The notes beneath the pieces are model-generated. The model was not told the origin of the DNA and made no database searches. It saw only the letters and a program-made list of their open reading frames with translations. From Patescibacteria group bacterium (lineage in GTDB: Bacteria > Patescibacteriota > Microgenomatia > Daviesbacterales > UBA10151): a stretch of 50,095 nucleotides of DNA. Position 1 is the first letter of the stretch. Every line of letters starts with the position of its first letter. The stretch covers positions 1 to 50,095 of the forward strand of contig JBBTSA010000005.1 of NCBI GenBank assembly GCA_038064895.1. The letters run 5' to 3'. The position numbers were made by a program, and so were the translations under genes. Positions 1 through 48,282 of this stretch are shown piece by piece.

Positions 1-396
1 ACCAGAATTATCCAGCAAGCAGCTTCTGGTATTTCTCCATTTGAAGTTACTCCGGCCTATATTGATGGGTTTCCAAACCTTCACCATCCCAATAATCTTT
101 GGGTTGGAGTAAAGGGAGATATAGATAAAGTTCTGCTAATAAGGGAAAAAATAAAAGATGGGCTGGAATATCTACATCTGCCTGTTGATGAAAGAAGATT
201 TGTGCCACACATAACAATAGCTAAATTTAGCACCCCGTTTAAAATAAGCAGAAAACTGGAGGTGGAACTGGAAAAAATCATGGCTCAAGCCTTTGATCCA
301 ATAAGGATATCATCAATCAAGTTATTTGAATCCATTCCCTCCGACGGCTTCCACAAACATAATACTCTAGCAGAAGTTAAATTGAATTCTAATTAA
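1..396 (+). CDS. thpR: RNA 2',3'-cyclic phosphodiesterase (2H family), 5'-truncated by window edge
   Basis: Frame is open from base 1 (TRIIQQAASGISPFEVTPAYIDGFPNLHHPNNLWVGV...DERRFVPHITIAK...), with the second HxT motif and the GFP...LWVG pattern. Confidence 0.88.
   Translation, partial: TRIIQQAASGISPFEVTPAYIDGFPNLHHPNNLWVGVKGDIDKVLLIREKIKDGLEYLHLPVDERRFVPHITIAKFSTPFKISRKLEVELEKIMAQAFDPIRISSIKLFESIPSDGFHKHNTLAEVKLNSN
346..383 (+). repeat. 38-bp direct repeat, copy 1 (3' end of thpR)
   Basis: ggcttccacaaacataatactctagcagaagttaaatt; 36/38 identical to 1140-1177. Confidence 0.95.
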
Positions 397-815
397 TATT
401 TTGTAATGGATTTTACTAGCTTACTTTTAGCTTTCTTTACTAAGTTTTCATCAGCTGTATAAAAAGGAATATTAAGATATTCTGCCAAAGCAATATATGA
501 TCCGTCATAGGATGAAATATTAAGATCAATTGCCATTTTTAATGCAGCCTCAAGAAGCTTTTTTGAATCATACACTATAAAATTAAGCTTTAAAAATGCA
601 CTGTAAAACTCCTGGGCTTTTTCTCCATTAATTCTCCCACTTAAAGTTGCAGATTTTAAAAGGTTATTAACTTCATAAAATAAAAGACTTGGAATATAAA
701 TTTCAATTTCTTTATCTCTAAAATCATCTTTAAGAATATCTGCTTTAAAGCTGGATTCGTCAGCTAGCAACCACTTAGCAACAACTGAGGCATCTATAAC
801 ACAGGATTTTTTCAC
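393..815 (-). CDS. vapC: PIN-domain toxin, VapC family
   Basis: VIDASVVAKW...E...SYD..YIALAE...FYTAD..L acidic PIN motifs. Confidence 0.92.
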   Translation of the reverse strand: MKKSCVIDASVVAKWLLADESSFKADILKDDFRDKEIEIYIPSLLFYEVNNLLKSATLSGRINGEKAQEFYSAFLKLNFIVYDSKKLLEAALKMAIDLNISSYDGSYIALAEYLNIPFYTADENLVKKAKSKLVKSITKY

Positions 816-1099
816 TTAAAATTTCTCAATATCCTATCTGCACGTTCCTGAAGTTCTCTTTTATTTTTTTCTACCAGGGCTTTGGTATTAATTTTACTAC
901 CCTTTAGGCTTTGTCTAAGTTTATCTATTTTATCCATAGCAGTTCTTTGGGGATCTAAATCAGTAATGTAACCAAACCCCTGGACCAAGGCTTCATTAAC
1001 TACTTCTTGTAAAGAAGTATTGGTGCGCAGAGCCAAAAGCTTTGACTGATCTAACAAATCCTTTCTAATTCTAATAGTAGTTCTTACCGTAGTTTGCAT
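812..1099 (-). CDS. Antitoxin, VapB-like (ribbon-helix-helix)
   Basis: VRTTIRIRKDLL N-terminus; 4-nt overlap with the downstream PIN gene. Confidence 0.75.
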   Translation of the reverse strand: MQTTVRTTIRIRKDLLDQSKLLALRTNTSLQEVVNEALVQGFGYITDLDPQRTAMDKIDKLRQSLKGSKINTKALVEKNKRELQERADRILRNFK

Positions 1100-1107
1100 A
1101 TATTTTA

Positions 1108-1136
1108 ACTATAGCATCAAGATGACAAGATGTCAA
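1108..1136 (-). promoter_or_regulatory. Sigma70 promoter of the TA operon, likely leaderless
   Basis: TTGACA-N17-TATAGT, 8 nt before the ATG at 1099. Confidence 0.75.
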
Positions 1137-1139
1137 CAA

Positions 1140-1177
1140 GGCTTCCACAAACATAATACCCTAGCAGAAGTAAAATT
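1140..1177 (+). repeat. 38-bp direct repeat, copy 2 (displaced thpR 3' end)
   Basis: ggcttccacaaacataataccctagcagaagtaaaatt; reads GFHKHNTLAEVKLGL*. Confidence 0.95.
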
Positions 1178-2162: not shown

Positions 2163-2287
2163 ATTGACTCCAATTTTCCACACCCCCTTTTCCCTAAAGC
2201 TGGGTATTGTTTGTCTTTTGGCCACCAGATTCACGTCTTTTTGTCAATTTAACGTGAATTTATCTGATTTTAGGGATATATTCACGT
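2154..2287 (-). pseudogene. Relic of a Fic-gene paralog: promoter/operator fused to the last ~23 codons
   Basis: 2154-2225 reads VAKRQTIPSFREKGVWKIGVNLG*, like the Fic C-terminus AAKRQTIPAFREKGVWSIGIK*; 2229-2287 aligns without gaps to 4405-4463. Confidence 0.85.
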
Positions 2288-2326
2288 TTTTTGTGGCTAG
2301 CTGAAGTTAAATTGGACTTCTTCTTC

Positions 2327-2355
2327 TTGACAAAAGCTTAACTTTATCCTAACCT
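2327..2355 (+). promoter_or_regulatory. Sigma70 promoter
   Basis: TTGACA-N17-TAACCT. Confidence 0.6.
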
Positions 2356-2368
2356 TATATCAATCATG

Positions 2369-2396
2369 CCGAGGACAAATAGGTCCTTGGTTTTTT
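2369..2396 (+). terminator. Intrinsic terminator-like hairpin in the leader of the 2405 ORF
   Basis: ccgaggac-aaatag-gtccttgg followed by T6. Confidence 0.5.
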
Positions 2397-2404
2397 AAAA
2401 GATT

Positions 2405-2668
2405 ATGCCAGGACCGGAATCAAATCCAGAAACCAGACAAGAAAAAGCCTTCGGTGGAGCCCGGCGAGGTTTACCAAATCTGGGAGCTAGAGGGGATCAG
2501 TTAAGAGATGCTCATTTAAATGGGGGTTTATCTCCAGATACACCAATAGAAAACCTACAAACCTATCTTGGTGTGGATAAACCATTTAGCGGATCCTCAA
2601 GGAATTTGAGAAATCCGCATTTTAAACTACCTAAAACTAAACCAGGAGAAGAAATTACTTTTATATAA
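2405..2668 (+). CDS. Small hypothetical protein
   Basis: 87-aa ORF downstream of a promoter. Confidence 0.5.
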   Translation: MPGPESNPETRQEKAFGGARRGLPNLGARGDQLRDAHLNGGLSPDTPIENLQTYLGVDKPFSGSSRNLRNPHFKLPKTKPGEEITFI

Positions 2669-2690
2669 GTGGAATAGTTTTATATCAATA

Positions 2691-3518
2691 TCAAGTAGGC
2701 AGAAAATAAATGTCCTTATGATACCTTTCATCCGTAAATTGAAACTCACCCCTTCCATCTAGAATAGCCTGATAAGCAATACAGTCACATTTTCCTTTTT
2801 CATTACATACCCAACTCTTGGTTACAATTGCCCCCTTAACCTCTTTTGCCTTTTCTGTAAGCCACTCTAGTCTAGGCTCAAGTGCATCCAAAACAATCTC
2901 TCTTGGTGCATCGTCCCTATCCAAATACCAGAAGCTTGCAGCAGATACACTTTTCCCAAAATTAGCTTCTGCTAAAATTGCATAAATATAAAGCTGCAAA
3001 GGATCTTTTTCATCATTTACTCCTGTTTTAAAATCGCAAACATGCAAAGTTCCGTCCTGCCTTTCTCCTATAAAATCAAAATTCCCCATAAGTATCACAT
3101 CTTCAAAAAGATTAAGTTTTGGAAAATCTATTTTGTGGGTAATTTTTTCAAGCCTTTTTGCATTTTTAAAAAAATTATCAAGCATTTTTATGCCTCTTTT
3201 CCCAAATACAGCTTCATCTTCTCTTGTGGCAAAACCTCCGCGCTTTCCAGAGTATTTAAGCCAAAAATTCCTGAATTTTTTTTCAAGCTGATCATAAGTT
3301 ATTTGTCCATCCATCTCTATGTACCACTTGACACTGTCATGAACAGTTGAACCTAAAGAAAGATAAGGGGATGCAACCTGGATCCTATTACCTGTTTTTT
3401 TATCCCTATAAAGATTTTTAAAATAATAAGTCCTAGGACATTTTAAAAAATCAGATAAAGATGTATAGGAAATAAAAATAGGATTTTTAATATAATCAGT
3501 TTTAGATTTAGTAATCAT
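2691..3518 (-). CDS. PD-(D/E)XK nuclease, RecB/AddB-like
   Basis: ISYTSLSDFLKCPRTYY, GSTVH, GNFD...VCDFKTG, QLYIYA; start 3518 gives an ATGA overlap with the Fic stop. Confidence 0.85.
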   Translation of the reverse strand: MITKSKTDYIKNPIFISYTSLSDFLKCPRTYYFKNLYRDKKTGNRIQVASPYLSLGSTVHDSVKWYIEMDGQITYDQLEKKFRNFWLKYSGKRGGFATREDEAVFGKRGIKMLDNFFKNAKRLEKITHKIDFPKLNLFEDVILMGNFDFIGERQDGTLHVCDFKTGVNDEKDPLQLYIYAILAEANFGKSVSAASFWYLDRDDAPREIVLDALEPRLEWLTEKAKEVKGAIVTKSWVCNEKGKCDCIAYQAILDGRGEFQFTDERYHKDIYFLPT

Positions 3519-4387
3519 TTGATCCCTATACTCCAAACTCCTTTTTCTCTAAAGGCTGGGATCGTCTGACGTTTGGCTGCATTTAAAACTGCTGAAGGAC
3601 TCATATTGGATTTTCTAGCATATTCCATAAGTTCTATAACATCCATACCTTTAAGATAAGCTATTCTTTTGTGTAAAGCTTCTAAGAGGGCTAAAGTAAC
3701 TATACGTTCCATTATTTTGGTATTTTTGCTATCACGGTATGCAACAAAACCACGGTAATAATTTTTCTGTTCTTTATGCCGGATGATAATACCCGGAAAT
3801 CCCAAGCTGTACAATTGGTAGTTTATCAATACACGTCCTATTCTACCGTTACCATCAAGAAATGGATGAATATTCTCAAAATCAAGATGGAATTTGGCAA
3901 TTTTATCGGTAAAGTAGAGCCTAAGATCAGATGAGAATTCAATTAAAATATCTTCAATCCTCCTTTCAATATGCTCCGGAGGCAAAGCTATATGAGTACC
4001 GATTCGGACATACTCATTTTTTTTTCTAAACCTTCCGGCAATACTTTCATCAATATTACCTAAAAACATCTGGTGATAGAGTAAGACTTTTTCTTTTGAT
4101 AAATCTTCTTTCTGCAATTTTCGTATATATTCCATCACCCTAGCTAAATTCTTTGCCTCAAAAACTTCTCTTAAAGAAAGATTGCCTGATAATTCCATCT
4201 CAAGAAGAATTTTTTCAGTTTCTTTCAAGGTTAGGGTTGAATTTTCTATAGCATTTGAGTTATAAACACTTTCCGGAACTTCTGCTTCATCTATTATCTT
4301 AAGCAGGGACTCCTTACCCGATTTTAGACGGTCAAACTCGCTTTTAAGTCTTTCAATTCTATTTTTAATTGGAAGAGGGGTTGCCAT
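3515..4387 (-). CDS. Fic-domain protein with C-terminal HTH-like tail
   Basis: HPFLDGNGRIGR catalytic motif and SNAIEN inhibitory-helix-like motif; start moved to ATG 4387 behind the promoter. Confidence 0.93.
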   Translation of the reverse strand: MATPLPIKNRIERLKSEFDRLKSGKESLLKIIDEAEVPESVYNSNAIENSTLTLKETEKILLEMELSGNLSLREVFEAKNLARVMEYIRKLQKEDLSKEKVLLYHQMFLGNIDESIAGRFRKKNEYVRIGTHIALPPEHIERRIEDILIEFSSDLRLYFTDKIAKFHLDFENIHPFLDGNGRIGRVLINYQLYSLGFPGIIIRHKEQKNYYRGFVAYRDSKNTKIMERIVTLALLEALHKRIAYLKGMDVIELMEYARKSNMSPSAVLNAAKRQTIPAFREKGVWSIGIK

Positions 4388-4394
4388 AGAATTT

Positions 4395-4463
4395 ATTATA
4401 TCAAATTCACTTACTTTTGTCAATTTAGCGTGAATTTATCCCGAAAGTGATCTAAATTCACGT
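4395..4463 (-). promoter_or_regulatory. Fic promoter with three ATTCAC(G) operator-like boxes
   Basis: TTGACA(4423-4418)-N17-TATAAT(4400-4395); attcac/gtgaat boxes at 4405, 4430 and 4456. Confidence 0.75.
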
Positions 4464-4479
4464 ATGCTACAATACAACA

Positions 4480-5553
4480 ATGGTTATTTTAGGTATAGAA
4501 ACTTCCTGTGATGAAACTGGGGCAGCTGTTTTGTCCTTCGACTCCGCTCAGGATAATAAGAACAAAAAAGGTATAAGGATTCTTTCCAACATAGTTGCCT
4601 CATCAGCTTCTATTCAGGCCAAATACGGAGGAGTGATTCCAGAACAAGCAGCTAGAGAACAGATTAAGGCAATAATTCCTGTAATACAGGAAACACTTCG
4701 ACAAGCTCAGTGCAGTCCTGAAGGACTGGCTGCTATAGCGGTAACGTATGGACCAGGATTAATTGGATCACTTTTAGTAGGAGTTGAAACAGCAAAAACT
4801 TTGGCCACGGTCTGGAACAAGCCACTTATTCCTGTAAACCATCTTATTGGTCATTTTTATGCAAACTTTATCCAAGCAGAACACCTCCGAGGTGTGCGTA
4901 AGGTGACAGCTAAAATTCACCTCGGAGGTGAAGCGCCATCTTTCCCATGTATAGGTTTACTAGTCTCAGGTGGCCATACAGATTTGGTGCTATTCACAGA
5001 TCATGGAAAGTATAAATATTTAGGTGGAACAAGAGATGATGCTGCTGGGGAATGTTTTGATAAATGTGCAAGGCTTTTGGGCCTTCCATATCCGGGTGGA
5101 CCTGAAATTTCCAAATTAGCCTTAAAAGGTGATCCAAAGGCTTTTGATCTACCAAGACCCATGATAGATTCAAAAAACTTTGACTTTTCTTTTTCCGGCC
5201 TGAAAACTGCTGTAGCCAAACTCACCTCCGAGGAGTCAAAGCCCACCTCGGAGGTGTTGCCTGGTTTAGCTGCATCCATTGAAGCTGCTATTGTTGATGT
5301 TCTAGTCTCAAAAACTATCAGAGCAGCCCAAGTCTACAAGGTAAAACAAATTATGATCGCAGGCGGTGTAGCTGCCAACAGGAGGTTAGTTCACAGGTTA
5401 CAGGTTACAGTAGGTAGATTGAAAATTAAACTTCATGTCCCCCCGCCAGAGCTCTGTACTGATAATGGTGCCATGATAGCAGCCGCAGGATTCTTTACTA
5501 GTCCCACCAAAGATCCTCTAACCTTACAAGCAGACCCAAACCTTGCGCTCTAA
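4480..5553 (+). CDS. tsaD: tRNA N6-adenosine threonylcarbamoyltransferase
   Basis: ILGIETSCDET, HLIGH, SGGHT, DDAAGE.FDK, FSFSGLKT, CTDNGAMIA. Confidence 0.98.
   Translation: MVILGIETSCDETGAAVLSFDSAQDNKNKKGIRILSNIVASSASIQAKYGGVIPEQAAREQIKAIIPVIQETLRQAQCSPEGLAAIAVTYGPGLIGSLLVGVETAKTLATVWNKPLIPVNHLIGHFYANFIQAEHLRGVRKVTAKIHLGGEAPSFPCIGLLVSGGHTDLVLFTDHGKYKYLGGTRDDAAGECFDKCARLLGLPYPGGPEISKLALKGDPKAFDLPRPMIDSKNFDFSFSGLKTAVAKLTSEESKPTSEVLPGLAASIEAAIVDVLVSKTIRAAQVYKVKQIMIAGGVAANRRLVHRLQVTVGRLKIKLHVPPPELCTDNGAMIAAAGFFTSPTKDPLTLQADPNLAL
4531..4556 (+). repeat. Palindromic element (cttcgactccgctcag family), in frame in tsaD
   Basis: ttgtccttcgactccgctcaggataa = LSFDSAQDN; relatives at 4694, 29508, 29561. 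Confidence 0.8.
4694..4712 (+). repeat. Palindromic element, in frame in tsaD
   Basis: cacttcgacaagctcagtg = TLRQAQC. Confidence 0.75.
4881..4932. repeat. Inverted pair of CACCTCCGAGGTG palindromes in tsaD
   Basis: acacctccgaggtgt ... ttcacctcggaggtgaa. Confidence 0.85.
5223..5256. repeat. Second inverted pair of CACCTCCGAGG palindromes in tsaD
   Basis: cacctccgaggag ... cacctcggaggtg, in a different reading frame from the first pair. Confidence 0.85.
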
Positions 5554-36710: not shown

Positions 36711-37114
36711 CCGATTAATCTTAATTCATTTATACCAAACAACTTAGATAATAAAAACTGTATTATTAGAAAAGCAAATATTAAGATTAGAAACCCAATT
36801 ATTGCATGGTTTATCATATTTCTTGCTCTTTCAATCTCTTCTTTATTCCCTCCTGCCTTAAGATAAAAAAAAGCTCCAATTAGAAAATATATTATAACTA
36901 TTGCGGTAGTAACCTCAAATGCCGGAACAACAAGCTTTGAGGTTGCCTCACCAAGGGAACGGATATCTCCGAAGCCGAATTTCTCGCCGATAGGTACTGG
37001 AGATTGAGCATGACTAGGGTATAGGGTATAGGGTATAGGGTATAGAAAAATAAATGCTAGTAAAAAAATTGTTATTAAGCTAAACCCTAACCCCCAAACC
37101 CTAGTTCCTTTCAT
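36707..37114 (-). CDS. VirB2/TrbC-like pilin
   Basis: LIGAFFYLKAGGNKEEIERARNMINHAIIG; start MKGTRV at 37114 (TGATG overlap). Confidence 0.85.
   Translation of the reverse strand: MKGTRVWGLGFSLITIFLLAFIFLYPIPYTLYPSHAQSPVPIGEKFGFGDIRSLGEATSKLVVPAFEVTTAIVIIYFLIGAFFYLKAGGNKEEIERARNMINHAIIGFLILIFAFLIIQFLLSKLFGINELRLIG
37015..37045 (-). repeat. (CTATACC)x4 heptamer tract in a signal peptide
   Basis: Encodes LYPIPYTLYP; identical tract at 40191-40221. Confidence 0.92.
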
Positions 37115-37437: not shown

Positions 37438-38547
37438 TCATCTTCCGAATCCAGGTATATCCAGTATACCAAATCCAATTATCTGAAGCAGTAGTACGGA
37501 AAATATGACAAACAAAAGTCCTATTACAGCATTAGTTAACCTGTCTTTCCCTGCTGCTAAAGTCTCAGGATTTCCTGCGGATGTTAACATCTGAAATACC
37601 CCCAAAAGCATCATTAAAAATGCCAATCCTCCTCCTATTCCAAGGCCAAACTTTAAGAAATCTTTTACAAGTTCTACAGGATTGGTGTGTATACAGCCAA
37701 TAGCAGTCTGAAAGCCAGGATTATTTGCATCCCCGCACGAAATCCCTCCTGCTAAAGCACAATCAACATGTTTGTTTGGATCAAAACCAGGGTCGCTTTT
37801 AGATTTGCATACCTTTTTAATAGTGGTAGTGGGTTGTATTCCAAAACGGCACTGTTTACCCTTTCCAATTGTCCAGCAAGTATATTGTGAACAGGCCGCT
37901 CCACCTGATTGACAATTAGCATCAATTGAGCAGAGTGCATTTTCTTTACTGCAGATATTTGCTGGGTTTTGACACTTTCCAGGAGTGCGGCCAGCGACTA
38001 ATCCAATACATTGATAATCATTACATCCAGGCTGTGCCTGGCAGGTACTAGGGTCTTGGTTACAGTTAGATCCTTCTTGGGGACATAGCTGTGTTGCTTC
38101 TGGTACACATTCGCAACGATCAGTAGTACCATAAATAGGATGGGGTTTATAGCCAGGCTTTGTACAATTATCCTGGACGTCCTTTCTAATTCCTCCTCGT
38201 GGACCGATTGGTACTCTAACTACATCGCATGAGCCTGAATTAGGTGGGAGGTTAGGAATTGGTGCCGGAGGGGTATAATTTGGATTACATGTCTCATCCT
38301 CCAATTCATCAACTATCACAGAAAGGTCATCTGCACATGTATACCCGGTCCGATAACCAGGTGTGCTACTACATTCTCCAGACCATGAGTCGCCTATATT
38401 GCGTAGGTTACTATTTTGATCAACACACACCTGACGGCACGAGGTATCATTTGGGTCTCCGCTGGGGCAATCTTCAGCCGACACTGATTTGACAAAAATA
38501 ATGCAAAAGATCAAAAAGCAAAGGCCTGAAAAAAATATTTTTCCCAT
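37438..38547 (-). CDS. Pilin-domain protein with Cys-rich N-terminal extension
   Basis: Signal peptide; 26 Cys in the mature N-terminal region; C-terminal LTSAGNPETLAAGKDRLTNAVIG. Confidence 0.85.
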   Translation of the reverse strand: MGKIFFSGLCFLIFCIIFVKSVSAEDCPSGDPNDTSCRQVCVDQNSNLRNIGDSWSGECSSTPGYRTGYTCADDLSVIVDELEDETCNPNYTPPAPIPNLPPNSGSCDVVRVPIGPRGGIRKDVQDNCTKPGYKPHPIYGTTDRCECVPEATQLCPQEGSNCNQDPSTCQAQPGCNDYQCIGLVAGRTPGKCQNPANICSKENALCSIDANCQSGGAACSQYTCWTIGKGKQCRFGIQPTTTIKKVCKSKSDPGFDPNKHVDCALAGGISCGDANNPGFQTAIGCIHTNPVELVKDFLKFGLGIGGGLAFLMMLLGVFQMLTSAGNPETLAAGKDRLTNAVIGLLFVIFSVLLLQIIGFGILDIPGFGR

Positions 38548-38583
38548 TATTTTTAGCTTAGCACAACTTTAATTTAGGGTCTA
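38545..38583 (-). repeat. 39-bp direct repeat, copy 1 (promoter and ATG of the pilin operon)
   Basis: cattatttttagcttagcacaactttaatttagggtcta; 34/39 identical to 39819-39857. Confidence 0.9.
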
Positions 38584-39738
38584 TAGAGTAGGAGTGAGTA
38601 AGACCTCGGATATTTTTTCGAAGTAATTTTGTATAGTAACTGTTTCAGATACATGCGGTAAAGGAAAGATTTTTTTCACTTTTCCCTGATCGACTTTAAT
38701 CTCGAAAACTGTATAATTTTTTTTATAGTCCTCTATCACAACATCAACCTCTTTCCCGCCATATTCTCGGTAAAAATATAGATTTACTTTAATATTTGAC
38801 ACTATGCGCCATTTTTCAATCTCTGAGATAATAAAATTTTCAAACAACCCTCCTTTATCGGGACGCAGCACTAAATCCCGGAAATCTTGAACCAGGATAT
38901 TCCGAATACCTAAATCATAAAAGTAAAGTTTTCTATTTTCAGATACCGCTTTCCTTATGTTGGTCCTAAATGAAGCCAATGGAATTAAGATATAGTTTTT
39001 TATAAAAATCTCAATATAATTGGAAACTGTTGAGGGGTTTGCACTAAGTGAGTCCGCTATTTCTCGAATTGATACCTCGCTTCCAAGTTGCAAAGCAATT
39101 TTTGTTAAAATATCCTTGGCCAGTTTAGTATTTTTTAATTGATAAATATCAATTACATCTTTTAAAACATAGGTATCAAGAATATTTTGTAATAGGTCAA
39201 TGCGTTGCGTTTCAGATAGTTGGTCTTGTACATATACTTCCGGGTAAGCACCGAATATTTGAAGTTTGTGTGCGAGATTTCGCTCGTATGCTGGCTTTTC
39301 AGATTGCCAAACTCCCTCATTTTCAGCTATCTCAAAAACAGACAAAGGCAAGCAGTAGGTTTCAATAAATCGTCCTGCCATTGTATCGAAGTCTTTAGAT
39401 TTTTGCCGAAGCTCACTACTGCCGGTTGCAATAACCTTTACCCTAAACTCATCGTGAAGAATCTTGAGCATTACTGTTACTTCTGGATAGTTTTGTACCT
39501 CATCAATTAAAATGATTTCGTTTTCTTTAACAATTTTTTCAAGAATTTCCCTTCTGGGAGCAAACTTTTCCCTATCTGACTCAAGATCAAAATTAAATTT
39601 TGTAACGCCTAAGTTTTTTGCTAATTTATTAAGAAGTGTTGTTTTTCCTGAGCGTCTTGGTCCCCAGACGTAAAGCACTTTATAAGTTTCTCCTTGCAGA
39701 TATTGGTTTATTATATTCTCAATTGCCCTTTTTAACAT
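38581..39738 (-). CDS. AAA+ ATPase (AAA_14 + DUF4143-type)
   Basis: GPRRSGKTT, IDEVQ, ATGSS, GAYPE, KLYFYDLGIRN, EVD.V...FEIK. Confidence 0.92.
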   Translation of the reverse strand: MLKRAIENIINQYLQGETYKVLYVWGPRRSGKTTLLNKLAKNLGVTKFNFDLESDREKFAPRREILEKIVKENEIILIDEVQNYPEVTVMLKILHDEFRVKVIATGSSELRQKSKDFDTMAGRFIETYCLPLSVFEIAENEGVWQSEKPAYERNLAHKLQIFGAYPEVYVQDQLSETQRIDLLQNILDTYVLKDVIDIYQLKNTKLAKDILTKIALQLGSEVSIREIADSLSANPSTVSNYIEIFIKNYILIPLASFRTNIRKAVSENRKLYFYDLGIRNILVQDFRDLVLRPDKGGLFENFIISEIEKWRIVSNIKVNLYFYREYGGKEVDVVIEDYKKNYTVFEIKVDQGKVKKIFPLPHVSETVTIQNYFEKISEVLLTPTL

Positions 39739-39818
39739 ACATTTACTATATCATTTTACTACTAATTTGTATTATGTCAATATACAATTTACTACAAATT
39801 TGTACAGTCTAGCTTGGA

Positions 39819-39857
39819 CATTATTTTCAGCTTACCACAAGTTTTAATTAGGGTCTA
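39819..39857 (-). repeat. 39-bp direct repeat, copy 2
   Basis: cattattttcagcttaccacaagttttaattagggtcta. Confidence 0.9.
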
Positions 39858-39889
39858 GTAATTAGGCACTAGGTACTAGAATAAAAGAA

Positions 39890-40080: not shown

Positions 40081-40148
40081 AATTTAATCTTAGCATCTAA
40101 TACATGTTAAAATTAAATGCATTCTCAAATTTTAGCATGCTTACTTTT

Positions 40149-41864
40149 ATGAGAAAGATTATCCTGATTTGCCTTTTGTTATTTTTTTTTCTATACCCTA
40201 TACCCTATACCCTATACCCTACCTTTGCTGATGAAATAGAGGACCTGCAAAGACAAATTGATGAGCTTTCAAAATCCAGGGAACTTTCTGTTAATGCCAC
40301 CAAGCCTTTGGAAGGACAACTGGATTCCTTAAGGCGTCAGCTTGCTCAAATTCAAGCAAACATAGACGGCCTGACAGATGGGATTAGGCAAAAACAGAAG
40401 GACTTGGATGTAAGGGAAGATAAATTAGCCCTGCAGCAGGCGCTTTTGGAGGAAAGAGTTAAAGCATATTATATTCGCTCATATTTAACTGATCCACTTT
40501 TAGTAATTCTGTCTTCCATACAATCAGGGGATTTATTTAGAGAACTATCTTACCGTCAATCAGTAACGCGTGAAGATCGGCAGATTATTTCCTCCATAAC
40601 AGGCGAGGTTGTTGACCTGCTGACTCAAAAAGACAAACTAGAGAAAGATAAAGCAAGGCTTGCTATTTTGCAAGCTGAAGTTGACAAAAATGCAAAGTTT
40701 TTGGGCGGAGAGGTAGCAAAAGCCAAAGTTTACCAGGCAGAACTTTCCTCTAAAATTGCTCAACTTAGCGCAAGACAGCAACAAATTATTGCTCAACGTC
40801 AGGCCTCTTTGAATCTGCCAACCTCACTGGGGGCAGGTCCGCTTTTTTGTACTGATGATAGAAAGTTAGATCCAGGGTTTTCTTCTGCCTTTGCATTTTT
40901 TACCTATGGTATTCCGCACAGGGTAGGTATGAACCAATATGGGGCATACGGCAGGGCACAGGCAGGGCAAAATCATGAAGATATTTTAAGAGCATACTTC
41001 CAGGATTTCTCATTTGAACAAAAGCCTAATATAAATATTTCTGTGCAAGGTCATGGATCAATGCCTTTGGAAACCTATCTTTTGGGTATTTATGAAATGC
41101 CGGATTCCTGGCCAATTGAAGCTTTAAAAGCACAGGCCATTGCCGCCCGCTCTTATGCCCTTGCCTTTACAAACAATGGGCAGTCTGAAATCTGCACCAG
41201 CCAGCTTTGCCAAGTTTACAAAGGCGGCAATAAAGGAGGAAATTGGGAGCAGGCCGTACAGCAAACAAATGGCAAAACAATGGTTTCAGGAGGATCGCCT
41301 GCAAAAGCCTGGTATTCATCAACAGACGGGGGCTACACTTTTACCTCGGGAGATGTTTGGGGCTCAAACAGATCTTTTACAAAAAGATTAAGGGATACAG
41401 CAGGGGATATTGGAGGGTTCGGGGATCTTTCTTCCAAATCATATGACAAAGACTCCCCATGTTTTTATGCGGCTCAAGGGTTTCGCAGTCAGTATGCAAA
41501 ATCCGCATGGTTAAAAAGTGAGGAGGTTGCGGACATTGCTAATGTAATAATGCTTGTGAAGATGGATTCGGGCGTATCGGCGCACATATACCAGACAGAC
41601 AAACCCAATCCTGAAGGCAGTGATACCTGGGACGAGGGCAGAGTGAAACAGGAAGTAAGAAACAGGGGCAATACCCCGTTTAACAGTGTTTCATCGGTTT
41701 CTGTAGCAGCTGATTTTGGAAGCGGTATGGTTACATCTGTTAGTGTTTCAGGAGATAAAGGTTCGGAGACATTTAACGGCACGGAATTTAGAAATTTCTT
41801 TAACCTAAGAGCTCCTGCAAATATTCAAATTGTCGGACCGCTTTTTAATGTTGAGCAAAAGTAG
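40149..41864 (+). CDS. Coiled-coil + SpoIID/LytB-domain exported protein
   Basis: Signal peptide, long coiled coil, HRVGMNQYGA, YLLGIYEMP.SW..EALKAQAIAARSY, CQVY; start 40149 preferred over 40104. Confidence 0.9.
   Translation: MRKIILICLLLFFFLYPIPYTLYPTFADEIEDLQRQIDELSKSRELSVNATKPLEGQLDSLRRQLAQIQANIDGLTDGIRQKQKDLDVREDKLALQQALLEERVKAYYIRSYLTDPLLVILSSIQSGDLFRELSYRQSVTREDRQIISSITGEVVDLLTQKDKLEKDKARLAILQAEVDKNAKFLGGEVAKAKVYQAELSSKIAQLSARQQQIIAQRQASLNLPTSLGAGPLFCTDDRKLDPGFSSAFAFFTYGIPHRVGMNQYGAYGRAQAGQNHEDILRAYFQDFSFEQKPNINISVQGHGSMPLETYLLGIYEMPDSWPIEALKAQAIAARSYALAFTNNGQSEICTSQLCQVYKGGNKGGNWEQAVQQTNGKTMVSGGSPAKAWYSSTDGGYTFTSGDVWGSNRSFTKRLRDTAGDIGGFGDLSSKSYDKDSPCFYAAQGFRSQYAKSAWLKSEEVADIANVIMLVKMDSGVSAHIYQTDKPNPEGSDTWDEGRVKQEVRNRGNTPFNSVSSVSVAADFGSGMVTSVSVSGDKGSETFNGTEFRNFFNLRAPANIQIVGPLFNVEQK
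40191..40221 (+). repeat. (CTATACC)x4 heptamer tract in a signal peptide
   Basis: Encodes LYPIPYTLYP. Confidence 0.92.
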
Positions 41865-45443: not shown

Positions 45444-45457
45444 ATGAAGGCGAAGTG

Positions 45458-45822
45458 TGGAGATGCCCCGTTTTGAGCGGGGGTCCAAAATTGTTTCTTA
45501 AAAAACTTCTACAAGCTTAGCTTTTATATATTTTTGAGTGTTAATTTGTAACCTAAAAGCAGGAAGATTAACACTTAATCCAAGTTTCTTTGTTTAGAAT
45601 ATGGATTAGATATCTAAACTGCATCCAGACTGGGTACATACCCTGGTGATCTAGCCTGGAGAAGATCATCCAAGATAATGCTTATACTACGGCGTAATTG
45701 CCGGCAAAGGCATAGCGGTCAGAATTTCTGCCGTTTGTGTTTTGAAACAATATTTAATGTTTAATGTTTCCTTAACAGCTTGCAGTTTTTAAAGAGCAAT
45801 CCTGTCGAGACTATACATCCCC
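45458..45822 (-). ncRNA. ssrA: tmRNA
   Basis: GGGGATG/CATCTCC-A acceptor stem with G3.U70; TCGAC; P2 pairing CTGCAAGC/GCTTGTAG; tag ORF 45732-45682; TATACT promoter; close to smpB. Confidence 0.92.
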
Positions 45823-45862
45823 AAGGCTAGTATACTACCATAATTAGGAGGTAAGATCAAAT

Positions 45863-46576
45863 ATGAGGATGACAAACTGGATTCTGGACATTCTTTTCCC
45901 AAAAAAATGTGTTGGTTGCGGGAAGTTTGAAACATACTTTTGCAAGGAATGTGTAGACAACCTTAAACAGGGGGAGCTTGTTTGTCCAAGGTGTGAGCAT
46001 CTTGCAGTTGGAGGACAAACTCATCCTATTTGTAGGCGCAGACTCGGTCTGGATGGACTGTGGAGTCTGGGGGTTTATGAGGGGGTACTTAAAAAAGCTA
46101 TCCAAAAGCTAAAATATGAGCCTTCTTTGGTTAGGGATTATGCTCCGGATTTAATGGATATTTTCATAGAATATTGGGCCATATTCCAGCCTTTTATCTT
46201 GGATCAAATTAAAAAGGACAGAGGAGAAGGATGGGTAGTTGTACCCGTACCACTGCACTGGTATAGAGAAAATGAAAGGGGTTTTAATCAGGCAAAACTT
46301 TTAGGACAAATATTATCCAAAAAATTAGGTTTAGCTTATTGTGAGGGTTTAAAACGAACTCGTTATACAAAGTCTCAAGTAAGGCTTTCAGAAAAACAAA
46401 GACGAAAAAATATTTTCGGTGCTTTTGAAATTTCTTCTGACTATACCCTATCCCCTAAACCCTATACCCTATTAATTGATGATGTTTGGACAACAGGTTC
46501 AACCTTAAGGGAGTGTTGTTACATCTTAAAAAGAGCAGGAGCTAAAAAAGTCTGGGCCCTCACTTTAGCTAGATAG
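45863..46576 (+). CDS. comF: ComF family protein
   Basis: LFPKKCVGC double Zn ribbon, VPVPLH...RGFNQ, LIDDVWTTGSTL. Confidence 0.95.
   Translation: MRMTNWILDILFPKKCVGCGKFETYFCKECVDNLKQGELVCPRCEHLAVGGQTHPICRRRLGLDGLWSLGVYEGVLKKAIQKLKYEPSLVRDYAPDLMDIFIEYWAIFQPFILDQIKKDRGEGWVVVPVPLHWYRENERGFNQAKLLGQILSKKLGLAYCEGLKRTRYTKSQVRLSEKQRRKNIFGAFEISSDYTLSPKPYTLLIDDVWTTGSTLRECCYILKRAGAKKVWALTLAR
46441..46470 (+). repeat. Degenerate CTATACC heptamer tract, in frame in comF
   Basis: ctatacc ctatccc ctaaacc ctatacc = YTLSPKPYTL. Confidence 0.8.
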
Positions 46577-46613
46577 CATAGGATCTTATTTAATGTTAAA
46601 ATTTAGGCTGGTT

Positions 46614-46699
46614 GGTGGGTTGTCTGAGTGGTTTAAAGAGGAAGTTCGCTAAACTTCTGGCGCGTAAGCGTCACACAGGTTCGAATCCTGTACCCACCG
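46614..46699 (+). tRNA. tRNA-Ser(GCT), CCA not encoded
   Basis: GGTGGGT/ACCCACC-G acceptor, long variable arm, GGTTCGAATCC; anticodon loop TC-GCT-AA. Confidence 0.88.
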
Positions 46700-48282
46700 C
46701 ATACGGAGGCGTGTCCGAGCGGTTTATGGAGACAGTCTTGAAAACTGTTGGGGATGAAAGTCCCTCGCAGGTTCGAATCCTGCCGCCTCCGCAGGTCAGA
46801 ACGATAAGTAGGTTTTAGCAGCACATCGTAAGGCTTTTGGTACGTCCAGACAAGCTTCTCGTCTTTTAGCAAGACGTTCCAACCGATCTTTGCAACTGCT
46901 TTACGTTTTGCCTCCAAATCATCACTATTTAACATCTCCCGAGCCTGATAGGCTGTTGTAAAGAAGTCCTCGGCAAGTTCCAACCAGGAGCGTTGTCCGT
47001 TTATTCCGTCATCTATTTTTTCTTTTAATTTTGCCTGTTCATCAAAGATAGCCTTTTTCTTATTTGTAAACTCATCAGCAGTCATCTCCTCCCGAGCGCG
47101 CATCTTAAAATAGCCATCAAGCTCACCTTGCAACCTTTGATACTGCCTTTGCCGGCTTTCTACCACCTGCGCCCGTTGTTTTGACTCTGATTCATACTTG
47201 GCATTGAGCAATTCAATACCTAAACGCCATGTCTCCTCATCAATTGTCACCGGAGCAATCTTGTCATCTAATTGATGTTCGAGTTCAGCAAGATCTATCC
47301 CCTTTTGAGTACACTTACTACACCTTTTGCTTGAACGGGCATAAGTATATTCTGCCCACCGGTCAGTCTTCTTATAATACTTTCGCTTAGTTTCAAAGAT
47401 GATTGAAGCACCGCAGCCACAGCCGCATTTCAAAAGCGCAGCATATGGCCAGTCGTTCACAATCTTCTTAGGCTTTGCCTTATTGTGTAAGACTATCTGT
47501 AGATCATCAAAGAGGCGTTTTGAGATAAGCGGTTCGTATGTTCCATTGTGCAGTTCGCCTGCGTGTTCATAAACACCATAATATATTGGATTTTGCAGGA
47601 TCCGGTGCAAATGTGATTTACTAACAGGCTTACCTTTACGGGTTCTAAGTCCCCAGGTGAATATTGCATCAGTCATTTTACCAAGTGAGTAATTGCCGGT
47701 TGAGTACTCGTTAAAGACCCTTATAACCAAGTCTTGACGCTCCGGATCAGGGGAGATATTAGTTACTCCGTTTACCTTGGTATTGGTATAGCCAATAGGA
47801 GCGTAGTTTGGATATTCTCCACGCTCATATTTTTGCCTAATACCACGCCTGACATTATCTGATAGATCGTCTGAAAACTTCTTAGCCATTCCAAACTCCA
47901 AAGCCATAAAAAACTTATCATCCCCGTTATTCTTATATTGCTTGTGGGGTGTATCTACCTGTTTAATCTTCCCTTCATCCATAAACCAGACAAAATCGCC
48001 TCCATCTTTAGAGTTTCTGGCTATACGGTTGATCTGCCAAACCAGCACAGAGTTAGCCTCACCTGTTTCGATCCTATTCATCATCTTGTTAAACACTTCC
48101 CGCCCTGGTTTGCTGGCTGATTTACTTTCAATCAAGGTATCTATTAGGTGGAGATTGCACTTCTCGGCATAATCTTTTAGCTCCCGAACCTGAGCCTCCA
48201 AAGATAATACCTGTCTGTCCTCATCCTCTTCAGACTTTCTACAGTAGATAAAATATTTTAATTGCTCGCCGTTTATATTCAT
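46633..48282 (-). CDS. Large serine recombinase (integrase)
   Basis: YCRKS catalytic Ser, Q..RIARN, LSDNVRRG, APIGY, L.NP.YYG, Zn ribbon, coiled coil. Confidence 0.93.
   Translation of the reverse strand: MNINGEQLKYFIYCRKSEEDEDRQVLSLEAQVRELKDYAEKCNLHLIDTLIESKSASKPGREVFNKMMNRIETGEANSVLVWQINRIARNSKDGGDFVWFMDEGKIKQVDTPHKQYKNNGDDKFFMALEFGMAKKFSDDLSDNVRRGIRQKYERGEYPNYAPIGYTNTKVNGVTNISPDPERQDLVIRVFNEYSTGNYSLGKMTDAIFTWGLRTRKGKPVSKSHLHRILQNPIYYGVYEHAGELHNGTYEPLISKRLFDDLQIVLHNKAKPKKIVNDWPYAALLKCGCGCGASIIFETKRKYYKKTDRWAEYTYARSSKRCSKCTQKGIDLAELEHQLDDKIAPVTIDEETWRLGIELLNAKYESESKQRAQVVESRQRQYQRLQGELDGYFKMRAREEMTADEFTNKKKAIFDEQAKLKEKIDDGINGQRSWLELAEDFFTTAYQAREMLNSDDLEAKRKAVAKIGWNVLLKDEKLVWTYQKPYDVLLKPTYRSDLRRRQDSNLRGTFIPNSFQDCLHKPLGHASVCGGYRIRTCVTLTRQKFSELPL
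46705..46791 (+). tRNA. tRNA-Ser(TGA), CCA not encoded
   Basis: GGAGGCG/CGCCTCC-G acceptor; ACAGT-CT-TGA-AA-ACTGT; long variable arm. Confidence 0.95.

Follow-up and report, generated by a model that had tools for sequence, protein, structure and literature searches.

Within the 50,095-nt contig JBBTSA010000005.1 of assembly GCA_038064895.1 (the whole stretch of DNA analyzed here, hereafter the window), a single gene encoding an AAA_14/DUF4143 protein stands at the start of a six-gene pilin operon, between two copies of the operon's own promoter-like element and start codon. The host is an ultra-small groundwater bacterium of the Patescibacteria, whose 1.0-Mb genome (G000) is held in 41 contigs, the window being contig C5. 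We interpret the arrangement, with a probability of roughly 80%, as a single-gene mobile cassette that entered the start of the operon through insertion with long target duplication. About 48 nt of the target, comprising the pilin control element (TGTGCTAAGCT-N7) and the ATG, would have been copied to both sides of the incoming DNA; the downstream copy would keep the pilin expressed, and the upstream copy would have been left behind as a relic with a 9-codon frame. The comparisons presented below establish the insertion event itself, the duplication of the target and the mobility of the cassette between unrelated sites.

A first-pass annotation, made from the sequence alone, had proposed a 39-bp direct repeat with 34 identical positions around the AAA gene, and this repeat was reproduced at a level far above shuffled sequence. 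Without gaps, positions 38545-38583 and 39819-39857 are identical at 34 of 39 positions. A gapped local alignment extends the repeat to 48-49 nt with one gap (49 columns), placing the left, pilin-proximal target copy at 38545..38592 and the right, distal copy at 39819..39866, and scores 54 against 16.7 ± 2.3 (maximum, 25) in 300 shuffles. When all contigs were scanned for direct repeats spaced 200-5000 nt apart, 80 pairs scored at least 20, the focal pair scoring 24; second-order Markov shuffles of the whole genome (n = 20) yielded no pair at or above 20 and a mean of 1.15 pairs at or above 18. Repeats of this kind are therefore far more frequent than expected from shuffled sequence, as the annotation had anticipated.

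Also confirmed was the annotated content of the two copies, both of which carry TAAGCT-N7-ATG on the minus strand. Read in minus-strand order, the left copy consists of conserved upstream heptamers, TGTGCTAAGCT, N7 and the ATG at which the first gene of the operon begins, encoding a Cys-rich T4SS-type pilin (37438..38547, minus strand; T4SS_pilin, PF18895). The right copy has the same promoter-like element and ATG and then runs into cassette DNA, its start codon opening a relic frame of nine codons (39792..39821, minus strand; M S K L D C T N L stop), the first three of which, MSK, are those seen at the pilin starts of several relatives. The TAG stop of the AAA_14/DUF4143 gene (38581-38583) falls within the left copy. 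The claim that the repeat flanks this gene exactly thus holds at the stop codon; at the other end, the right copy lies 80 nt from the AAA start codon, and because these 80 nt contain a promoter of their own, the repeat flanks a cassette rather than a bare open reading frame (ORF). This stretch was recovered, as contigs, in 8 public runs from 2 studies; in contigs from four of the runs, the left junction is bridged in three (X1, X3, and X5) and the right in all four, with no differences.

Between the 48-nt copies lie 1226 bp with one ORF inside (a unit of ~1.23 kb). The leader (39739..39818, minus strand; 80 nt) contains the promoter TTGACA-16-TAAAAT (39780-39753, minus strand; 11 of 12 consensus matches), which is the best sigma-70-type match of the region and is flanked by two operator-like direct repeats of ~20 nt. 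It is conserved along with the gene in the orthologous cassettes of four other genomes, where similarity starts ~75-80 nt before the ATG and stops ~10 codons before the stop. Therefore, the mobile unit extends from the promoter to nearly the stop codon, ~1.23 kb, and the G000 reading frame continues into duplicated target sequence until it reaches its stop. Our scan for terminator-like sites found none on the minus strand from the AAA gene to the pilin gene.

The cargo gene (38581..39738, minus strand; 385 aa) was identified with Pfam and PADLOC. Its product matches AAA_14 (84.7 bits; cut-off, 27) and DUF4143 (111.7 bits; cut-off, 28.1), as well as the PADLOC profile of the candidate defence system PDC-S01 (E = 4e-87), and has the architecture of a STAND-like AAA+ ATPase followed by a winged helix and a C-terminal DUF4143 domain of the PD-(D/E)XK family. 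Across 34 aligned homologs, there is no variation at G26-T34 (Walker A), D79, E80, D332, or K348, and conservation of E346 is 90% or higher, D332...E346-x-K348 representing the D...ExK motif of PD-(D/E)XK type. The first-pass annotation had described the cassette as enzyme-free, which this conserved motif makes doubtful for the focal cargo. The AlphaFold model of the protein (pLDDT, 89.7; pTM, 0.89) was searched whole with Foldseek, and the matches, which cover the AAA+/STAND part only, were CED-4, the archaeal ATPases 2qen and 2fna, Orc1/Cdc6, and RuvB. Residues 382-385, part of the stretch that the duplicated target encodes, come out disordered, at low confidence, in the model. A PDB sequence search with the protein returned nothing below an E value of 0.07, Pfam found no transposase domain in it, and the G000 genome holds no second DUF4143 gene. 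DUF4143 has been catalogued as a PD-(D/E)XK family of unknown function (PMC3424549). PDC-S01 is reported to rank fourth in frequency among the defence systems of prokaryotes, with validation said to be pending for most PDCs (PMC12988326). Judging by its domains and motifs, the cargo is a candidate anti-phage ATPase-nuclease.

A view of the site without this cargo comes from relatives. The pilin operon and a divergent SpoIID-domain gene (40104..41864, plus strand; Pfam), which forms the other border of the interval, are syntenic across the family in a DNA search of 40 relatives. We compared 15 related loci, namely, 13 genomes in which pilin and SpoIID genes were matched on one contig and the metagenome loci L124 and L125, and found an ortholog of the G000-type AAA gene in the interval of none of them. 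In six (G015, G016, G022, G024, G008, and L125), the interval is empty, with the two start codons ~40-190 nt apart and one promoter copy. The other nine carry different cargo, mostly toxin-antitoxin pairs: PIN with a MazE-type antitoxin (G011), BrnT with CopG (G006), DUF5615 with DUF433 (G009), PIN and VapB with two small ORFs (G014), a 23S_rRNA_IVP four-helix protein (G007 and G003), AbiEii with a small ORF (G018), a PDC-S01 paralog, only 33% identical, with an IVP gene (G019), and, as read by eye, two DUF433/DUF5615-like pairs (L124). Since no ortholog occurs at the 15 loci and the cargo is so varied, the gene is not fixed here and the interval is an insertion hotspot; fixation at this site was the contrary case considered by the first-pass annotation. 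Both G000 copies align to the single promoter copy of the six empty loci, a comparison that is made between genera and not between strains.

Almost all of the 13 genomes retain the upstream element of the pilin gene, T(G/A)TGCTAAGCT with the ATG 6-8 nt further on, which would, from its sequence, fit an extended -10 box of a leaderless mRNA. In G000, TGNTAAGCT-N5-9-ATG has nine matches, and the pilin gene is the only gene with a called start at one of them; the TAAGCT-type element was also considered as a general promoter of this genome and was rejected on these numbers. In G011, G014, and G008 (L014, L017, and L020), which represent three genera, the element is split by a palindromic insert of ~30 nt, reading TGCTAAGC-CACAA...TTGTG-GTAAGCT, with two partial copies of the element remaining. 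It could represent either a miniature insertion or what an excised cassette left behind.

Duplication of the pilin promoter and start codon has occurred again in four of the nine filled loci (G019, G018, G014, and L124). In G019, a 27-nt repeat (26/27) surrounds the PDC-S01 paralog and takes in the promoter and the ATG as well as 11 nt of the pilin frame. The AbiEii unit of G018 is enclosed by a 40-nt repeat (39/40) that ends 7 nt into the pilin frame (the ATG plus 4 nt). The 17-nt repeat around the PIN pair of G014 (16/17; score, 14) is weak, since chance could produce such a match in 5 kb, and is counted for its position. In L124, a promoter-plus-ATGTCCAAAA unit is present four times, bracketing the first toxin-antitoxin pair, the second pair and a 279-nt piece; the two pairs are ~78% identical at the DNA level, and the array could be attributed either to serial insertion or to tandem amplification through the repeats.

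Two further features of these loci were observed. Tandem copies of the 7-mer CCCTATA (four each) occur at 40181-40221 and 37015-37055 in opposite orientation, where they encode YPIPYTLYP within the signal-peptide regions of two genes, the SpoIID gene and a pilin gene; near-identical runs are found in many relatives on both strands, and most relatives have related heptamers (CCCTAAT/CCCTAGA) ahead of the pilin promoter. In the operons of several relatives, genes encoding four-helix-bundle proteins of the 23S_rRNA_IVP/bAvd-like type lie between the pilin genes (for example, L015 951-1358, L016 1263-1649, and L017 421-825); such genes also lie upstream of the operon in G007, G003, and G019, and are absent from the G000 operon.

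Cassettes of the same family are found at sites that have nothing in common with the pilin promoter. Orthologs with 66-78% amino acid identity are located elsewhere in G023, G039 (a member of another family), G007, and G035. The G023 cassette is flanked by a 78-nt repeat (70/78) that belongs to a decayed duplication, at least 115 nt long, of the start of the downstream cytidylyltransferase/APS-kinase gene. No comparable flanking repeat reached a score of 14 at the ortholog loci of G039 and G007, and that of G035 showed only one 14-nt pair, one copy of which lies inside the gene. A broader scan with one genome per species returned 80 ortholog loci (53-80% identity) from many Patescibacteria lineages and some Chloroflexota. 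The gene is near complete at 71 of these, and 68 of the 71 also have at least 300 nt on both sides and were usable. Direct repeats scoring at least 18 flank the cassette at 8 of the 68 loci, compared with none in either the inverted or the permuted control; at a score of at least 14, the counts are 11, 1, and 2, respectively. The repeats of the eight loci are 28-84 nt long, and one of these loci, L043, is almost certainly the G023 locus, given its contig coordinates and an identical 78-nt repeat.

To describe the limits of the unit, nine repeat-flanked loci were tabulated, and L055 was set aside, its repeat resembling the cassette's own operator sequence. In the eight that remain, the unit measures 1219-1334 bp, starts 59-171 nt ahead of the ATG and ends between ~11 nt before the stop (G000) and ~60 nt past the matched end. 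None of the eight cassettes has terminal inverted or direct repeats above shuffles. The pilin promoter motif stands beside the cassette at none of the 80 ortholog loci, and pilin genes are near one partial match only (L122). Across all cases, target duplications have no fixed length, the shortest being 17 nt and the longest at least 115 nt.

The same footprint recurs throughout the G000 genome. After paralogous coding repeats and about ten pairs with mostly other or unclear cargo (C7, C11, C13, C14 33542, C18, C24, two in C2, C37, and C41) were left out, 13 short repeat-flanked intervals remained, with repeats of 27-79 nt and a median of 39 nt, in agreement with the length mode near 40 bp predicted in the first-pass annotation. 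Two of them share the window with the focal pair (C5 38545/39819, 34/39, PDC-S01). The first is a PIN toxin-antitoxin cassette (346..1177; repeat, 346-383/1140-1177, 36/38 over 38 nt; PIN toxin, 393-815, and antitoxin, 812-1099, both on the minus strand) at the 3' end of a LigT/ThpR-like gene (1-396, plus strand); the annotation had cited this thpR duplication as a match in length to the focal one, and it is real. The second, just upstream of tsaD (4480-5553, plus strand), is a PDDEXK_1 and Fic cassette (2229..4440; repeat, 2229-2264/4405-4440, 32/36 over 36 nt), with the PDDEXK_1 nuclease at 2691-3536 and Fic at 3515-4423, both on the minus strand. The others, with cargo named by Pfam, are C2 33565/34284 (32/32; MazE and PIN), C10 13673/14387 (35/40; DUF4258 and an MqsA-like protein), C10 45831/46151 (26/27; GIY-YIG), C10 239739/240427 (35/38; DUF5678 and an aspartyl protease), C14 50792/51492 (41/42; ParE and RelB), C14 51492/52992 (52/56; cyclase), C31 5823/6556 (28/31; PIN and MazE), C39 1098/1604 (42/43; HicA), C39 3952/4748 (79/79; MazE and Doc), and C38 1982/3843 (41/46; Fic and MazF).

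All 13 intervals hold toxin-antitoxin, nuclease, Fic or defence genes, and every repeat overlaps the end of a host gene (its last 80 nt at most), a gene start or promoter, or a tRNA. The gene ends that were hit are those of fmt, a sigma-factor-like gene, thpR, uvrB, a thioredoxin-reductase-like gene, dnaX, and glmS; first codons or promoters were hit at a TsaD-family gene, tsaD, and the pilin gene. The repeat sequences of the 13 intervals are unrelated to each other, as are those of the orthologous loci. Empty alleles, which the annotation had also expected, exist both at the pilin site and for the C31 PIN cassette; the latter is absent in 12 of 25 relatives, in which glyA and dnaX lie no more than 90 nt apart, and in G014 one stretch aligns to both C31 repeat copies. 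As in the focal cassette, the C31 cargo ORF stops inside duplicated host sequence. Three relatives carry a pair related to that of C2 beside fmt. Of the genome's 13 PIN genes, 3 lie within such intervals. Together with the hotspot and the ortholog sites, these 13 intervals support the proposal of the first-pass annotation that a general insertion route operates in this lineage.

Several pairs outside this tally have features of their own. In C7 (8378-11111; L035 1378-4111), three perfect AT-rich repeats of 91-93 nt with inverted ends of ~13 nt separate segments of ~1.1 and ~1.4 kb that have 52-59% G+C, compared with 37% for the genome; Pfam recognizes none of the ORFs in these segments, Rfam finds nothing in the DNA even at an E value of 0.1, and a PIN gene directly precedes the first repeat. 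The region has the appearance of an attC-like array of foreign cassettes or else of an assembly chimera. Non-toxin-antitoxin cargo is enclosed by a 60-nt repeat (52/60) in C41 (7383-10258; a HAD-like hydrolase and a 746-aa protein unmatched in Pfam, placed at the 3' terminus of a SpoU methylase gene) and by an 82-nt repeat (71/82) in C37 (161-3052; an inositol-monophosphatase-like gene and a 315-aa ORF without a Pfam match, adjoining a terminase-small-subunit-like gene). In C11 (17547-19456), an 85-nt repeat (84/85) surrounds IS-type integrase fragments (rve_3 and HTH) inserted in a DUF4258 toxin gene.

Regarding the origin of the duplications, one cassette family bears unrelated duplications at unrelated sites; therefore, carried-in homology and a single att site are excluded as the general cause, and the duplication would be made during insertion rather than brought by the cassette. 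Its source might be (i) a widely staggered break with fill-in or (ii) replicative template switching onto the incoming DNA. The toxins of the scar-flanked cassettes, which we take to be RNases, a kinase-type Doc and a gyrase-poison-type ParE, would not cut DNA, and since cassettes with such toxins bear the same scar, we infer that a pathway not encoded by the cargo is favoured. Two filters may then shape what is seen today: repeat-flanked inserts would be easily lost by recombination between the repeats unless their cargo is addictive or useful, and, in a dense genome, only those insertions would survive whose duplication spares the neighbouring gene. Together, these filters would account for the position of the cassettes at gene ends and promoters and for their function-restoring look. 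The first-pass annotation had stated that the repeat rebuilds the pilin promoter; the pilin does keep its promoter and start codon, and this is better read as a by-product of target duplication together with the survival of insertions that leave the neighbour unharmed. Nothing shows that the cassette brought promoter sequence along.

Four observations weigh against insertion with long target duplication at the pilin operon. (i) No genome or strain of the same species without the cassette turned up; the relatives all belong to other genera, leaving the pre-insertion target known only at ~70-85% similarity, and a metagenome scan with the pilin protein for a cassette-free strain with the same allele returned three loci, all of them distant. 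(ii) Five of the 39 positions differ between the two copies, and so does their allelic type. The right copy, ATG TCC AAG, is of the MSK type, as in G011, G019, G008, and G014; the left, working copy, ATG GGA AAA, is of the MGK type, as in G006. A simple duplication in situ does not predict this difference, which needs either a later replacement of the hypervariable pilin 5' end or the import of one copy from a donor. (iii) Only 8 of the 68 orthologous cassettes show a repeat at a score of at least 18, and the remainder would be either old or have arrived otherwise. (iv) Three of the 13 intervals are at tRNA genes (Asp, Leu, and Tyr), the classical target of integrases. A mismatch like that of the focal copies is present in G014, where the relic copy is MPK and the working copy MSK, and the two mismatches hint at allelic exchange of pilin 5' ends.

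The PDC-S01 protein could instead catalyze its own insertion as a one-gene transposable element, with the PD-(D/E)XK domain cutting at a wide stagger and the AAA+/winged-helix part binding the leader repeats. This would change the agent and not the event. It is consistent with the conservation of D332...E346-x-K348 and of Walker A/B in the 34 aligned homologs, with the place of DUF4143 among PD-(D/E)XK families (PMC3424549), and with a tightly bounded unit (1219-1334 bp at unrelated sites) whose two operator-like leader repeats are conserved. Flanking repeats at 8 of 68 orthologs versus none in the controls, and the arrival of a distant family member at the very same site in G019, argue in the same direction. 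However, the same scar surrounds PIN, ParE/RelB, HicA, Doc, MazF, and AbiEii, toxins not known as DNA endonucleases; terminal inverted or direct repeats were found in none of the eight cassettes, the edges of which vary by tens of bases, and G000 has only one DUF4143 gene. We therefore regard self-insertion as unlikely, albeit worth keeping in view.

The difference in type between the copies (MSK versus MGK here and MPK versus MSK in G014) would be explained by a Campbell-type import, in which a circle from the pilin promoter site of another genome, consisting of the cassette and one repeat copy, entered by homologous recombination and left both copies as donor/recipient hybrids. The presence of the hotspot with repeats in several genera would also agree with such an import, and release and re-invasion are part of the life cycle hypothesized for R-M units (PMC2853133). 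However, none of the 80 ortholog loci lies beside the pilin promoter motif (L122 has a partial match with pilin genes nearby), and the new, unrelated duplications elsewhere are beyond the reach of a homology-dependent import. Neither a circle nor an excision junction was seen: no contig leads from one cassette end back to the other, as a circle or tandem copy would, or joins 38545 to 39819, as an empty allele would, but contigs drop rare variants and so carry no weight in either direction. Import of this kind is thus considered quite improbable, and still less credit can be given to site-specific integration by a trans-acting recombinase, in which the repeats would be attL and attR of a non-autonomous or decayed element. 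In its favour, three cassettes are situated at tRNA-Leu, tRNA-Tyr, and tRNA-Asp with duplicated tRNA parts, and the genome encodes two tyrosine and two large serine recombinases, one of the latter in the window (47815-48252). However, the 13 repeat pairs (27-79 nt) have no common sequence, orthologous cassettes occupy unrelated targets, the cargo occupies nearly every base between the repeats, and no recombinase gene lies in the focal cassette or adjoins it, the nearest being ~8 kb away. Finally, it is hardly credible that there is no scar at all, the copies being two instances of one regulatory element (for the AAA gene and for the pilin gene) or a product of chance: an intact TAAGCT-N7-ATG in both copies would suit the former, but chance is excluded by the shuffles, the nine genomic matches to TGNTAAGCT-N5-9-ATG include a called gene start only at the pilin, empty-site relatives carry one copy, the repeat passes the ATG into the pilin frame by 11 nt in G019 and 4 nt in G018, and the AAA gene has a different promoter that travels along with it.

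The serine recombinase mentioned above was observed as part of a cluster at 45455-48252 that also includes a tmRNA (45455-45822, minus strand) and two tRNAs (46614-46791, plus strand), the only Rfam matches in the window. Its Resolvase domain (47815-48252, minus strand) belongs to a 551-aa frame, and the cluster may mark the edge of an integrated element.

Among known systems, insertion with long target duplication gives the closest correspondence. This type of insertion of R-M units was reportedly described by Nobusato et al. in 2000 (Gene 259:99). In Furuta, Abe and Kobayashi 2010 (PMC2853133), it is recognized by R and M genes inside, an insert below 20 kb, a duplication above 30 bp and no other mobile element; the duplications reported there range from 46-47 bp to ~400 bp, and most species with such units are naturally competent. 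The same paper proposes DNA breakage by the R-M system as well as a virus-like cycle, with direct evidence only for the step in which the units are amplified (PMC2853133). The focal insert agrees in that its repeat is single in empty loci and exceeds 30 bp, the insert is smaller than 20 kb, and there are no other mobile-element genes; it departs in its cargo, which is AAA_14 plus DUF4143 (PDC-S01) and not R-M. The general picture is likewise that of a short unit between repeats that are single in genomes without the unit, longer than 30 bp, variable in length and often overlapping the end of a neighbouring gene, with no integrase, transposase or other mobile element, and the idea of amplification through the repeats fits the four-fold promoter unit of L124. 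The differences concern the cargo (PDC-S01 here, and type II/IV toxin-antitoxin systems, Fic and small nucleases elsewhere in the genome) and the hosts, which are Patescibacteria in which one promoter was struck repeatedly in different genera. Moreover, breakage by restriction enzymes as a common cause does not cover toxins of the RNase type.

Other known elements correspond less well. Hotspots of defence or accessory genes between core genes are filled by integrase-bearing elements or by recombination in flanking homology. The fixed pilin-SpoIID interval resembles them, and phage morons, in receiving different small modules with their own promoters in each genome; in contrast, its single cassettes carry target duplications of their own, and no recombinase is present. 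Non-autonomous integrative elements flanked by att sites include cis-mobilisable elements and islands at tRNA genes. They share with the present cassettes direct repeats that restore a broken gene end and, in three G000 cassettes, the location at tRNA genes; unlike them, one cassette family here occupies many unrelated targets, with neither a shared att core nor a recombinase gene. Free-standing homing endonuclease genes, such as GIY-YIG genes beside tRNAs, are also single selfish nuclease genes that are present or absent among relatives, but they copy themselves into the same site of an empty allele without a long target duplication, whereas the PDC-S01 family is found at many unrelated sites, each with a new duplication. 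Of the hallmarks of IS or DDE-type transposons, neither terminal inverted repeats, nor a transposase, nor a short duplication of fixed length was found.

The first-pass annotation had put the focal locus forward as an undescribed system. Its footprint, however, matches the insertion mode already published for R-M genes (PMC2853133). In our literature search, which covered mainly titles and the openings of abstracts and no subscription journals, we found no description of this mode for DUF4143/PDC-S01 or toxin-antitoxin cargo. What is new here is the recurrent promoter hotspot, with arrays made up of cassette and target copy, and the finding that toxin-antitoxin cargo shares this mode in one small genome.

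A wider proposal can be offered tentatively, and we hold it to be possible rather than probable: a recombinase-independent pathway in Patescibacteria, and perhaps in many prokaryotes, would place promoter-to-stop cassettes at gene boundaries and duplicate 17-115 nt, with a mode near 40 nt in G000, and repeated hits on a promoter would build integron-like arrays (L124 and the triple repeat of C14). In the very abundant PDC-S01 family, the ATPase-nuclease may itself be the enzyme of insertion, which would make it a new class of one-gene transposable element besides or instead of a defence gene.

Reports of insertion with long target duplication go back to 2000, concern R-M genes only and supply no mechanism. 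The same scar is now seen around a candidate defence family and a dozen toxin-antitoxin or nuclease cassettes in a 1-Mb genome, and one short promoter segment has been struck independently in several genera. If the pathway is independent of the cargo, it would offer ultra-small bacteria poor in recombinases a main route for gaining and losing defence and addiction modules, and it would explain how such genes land harmlessly in gene ends and promoters. With a compact 1.2-kb cassette that has its own promoter, and a new duplication as the read-out, this old question would become testable in a transformable host.

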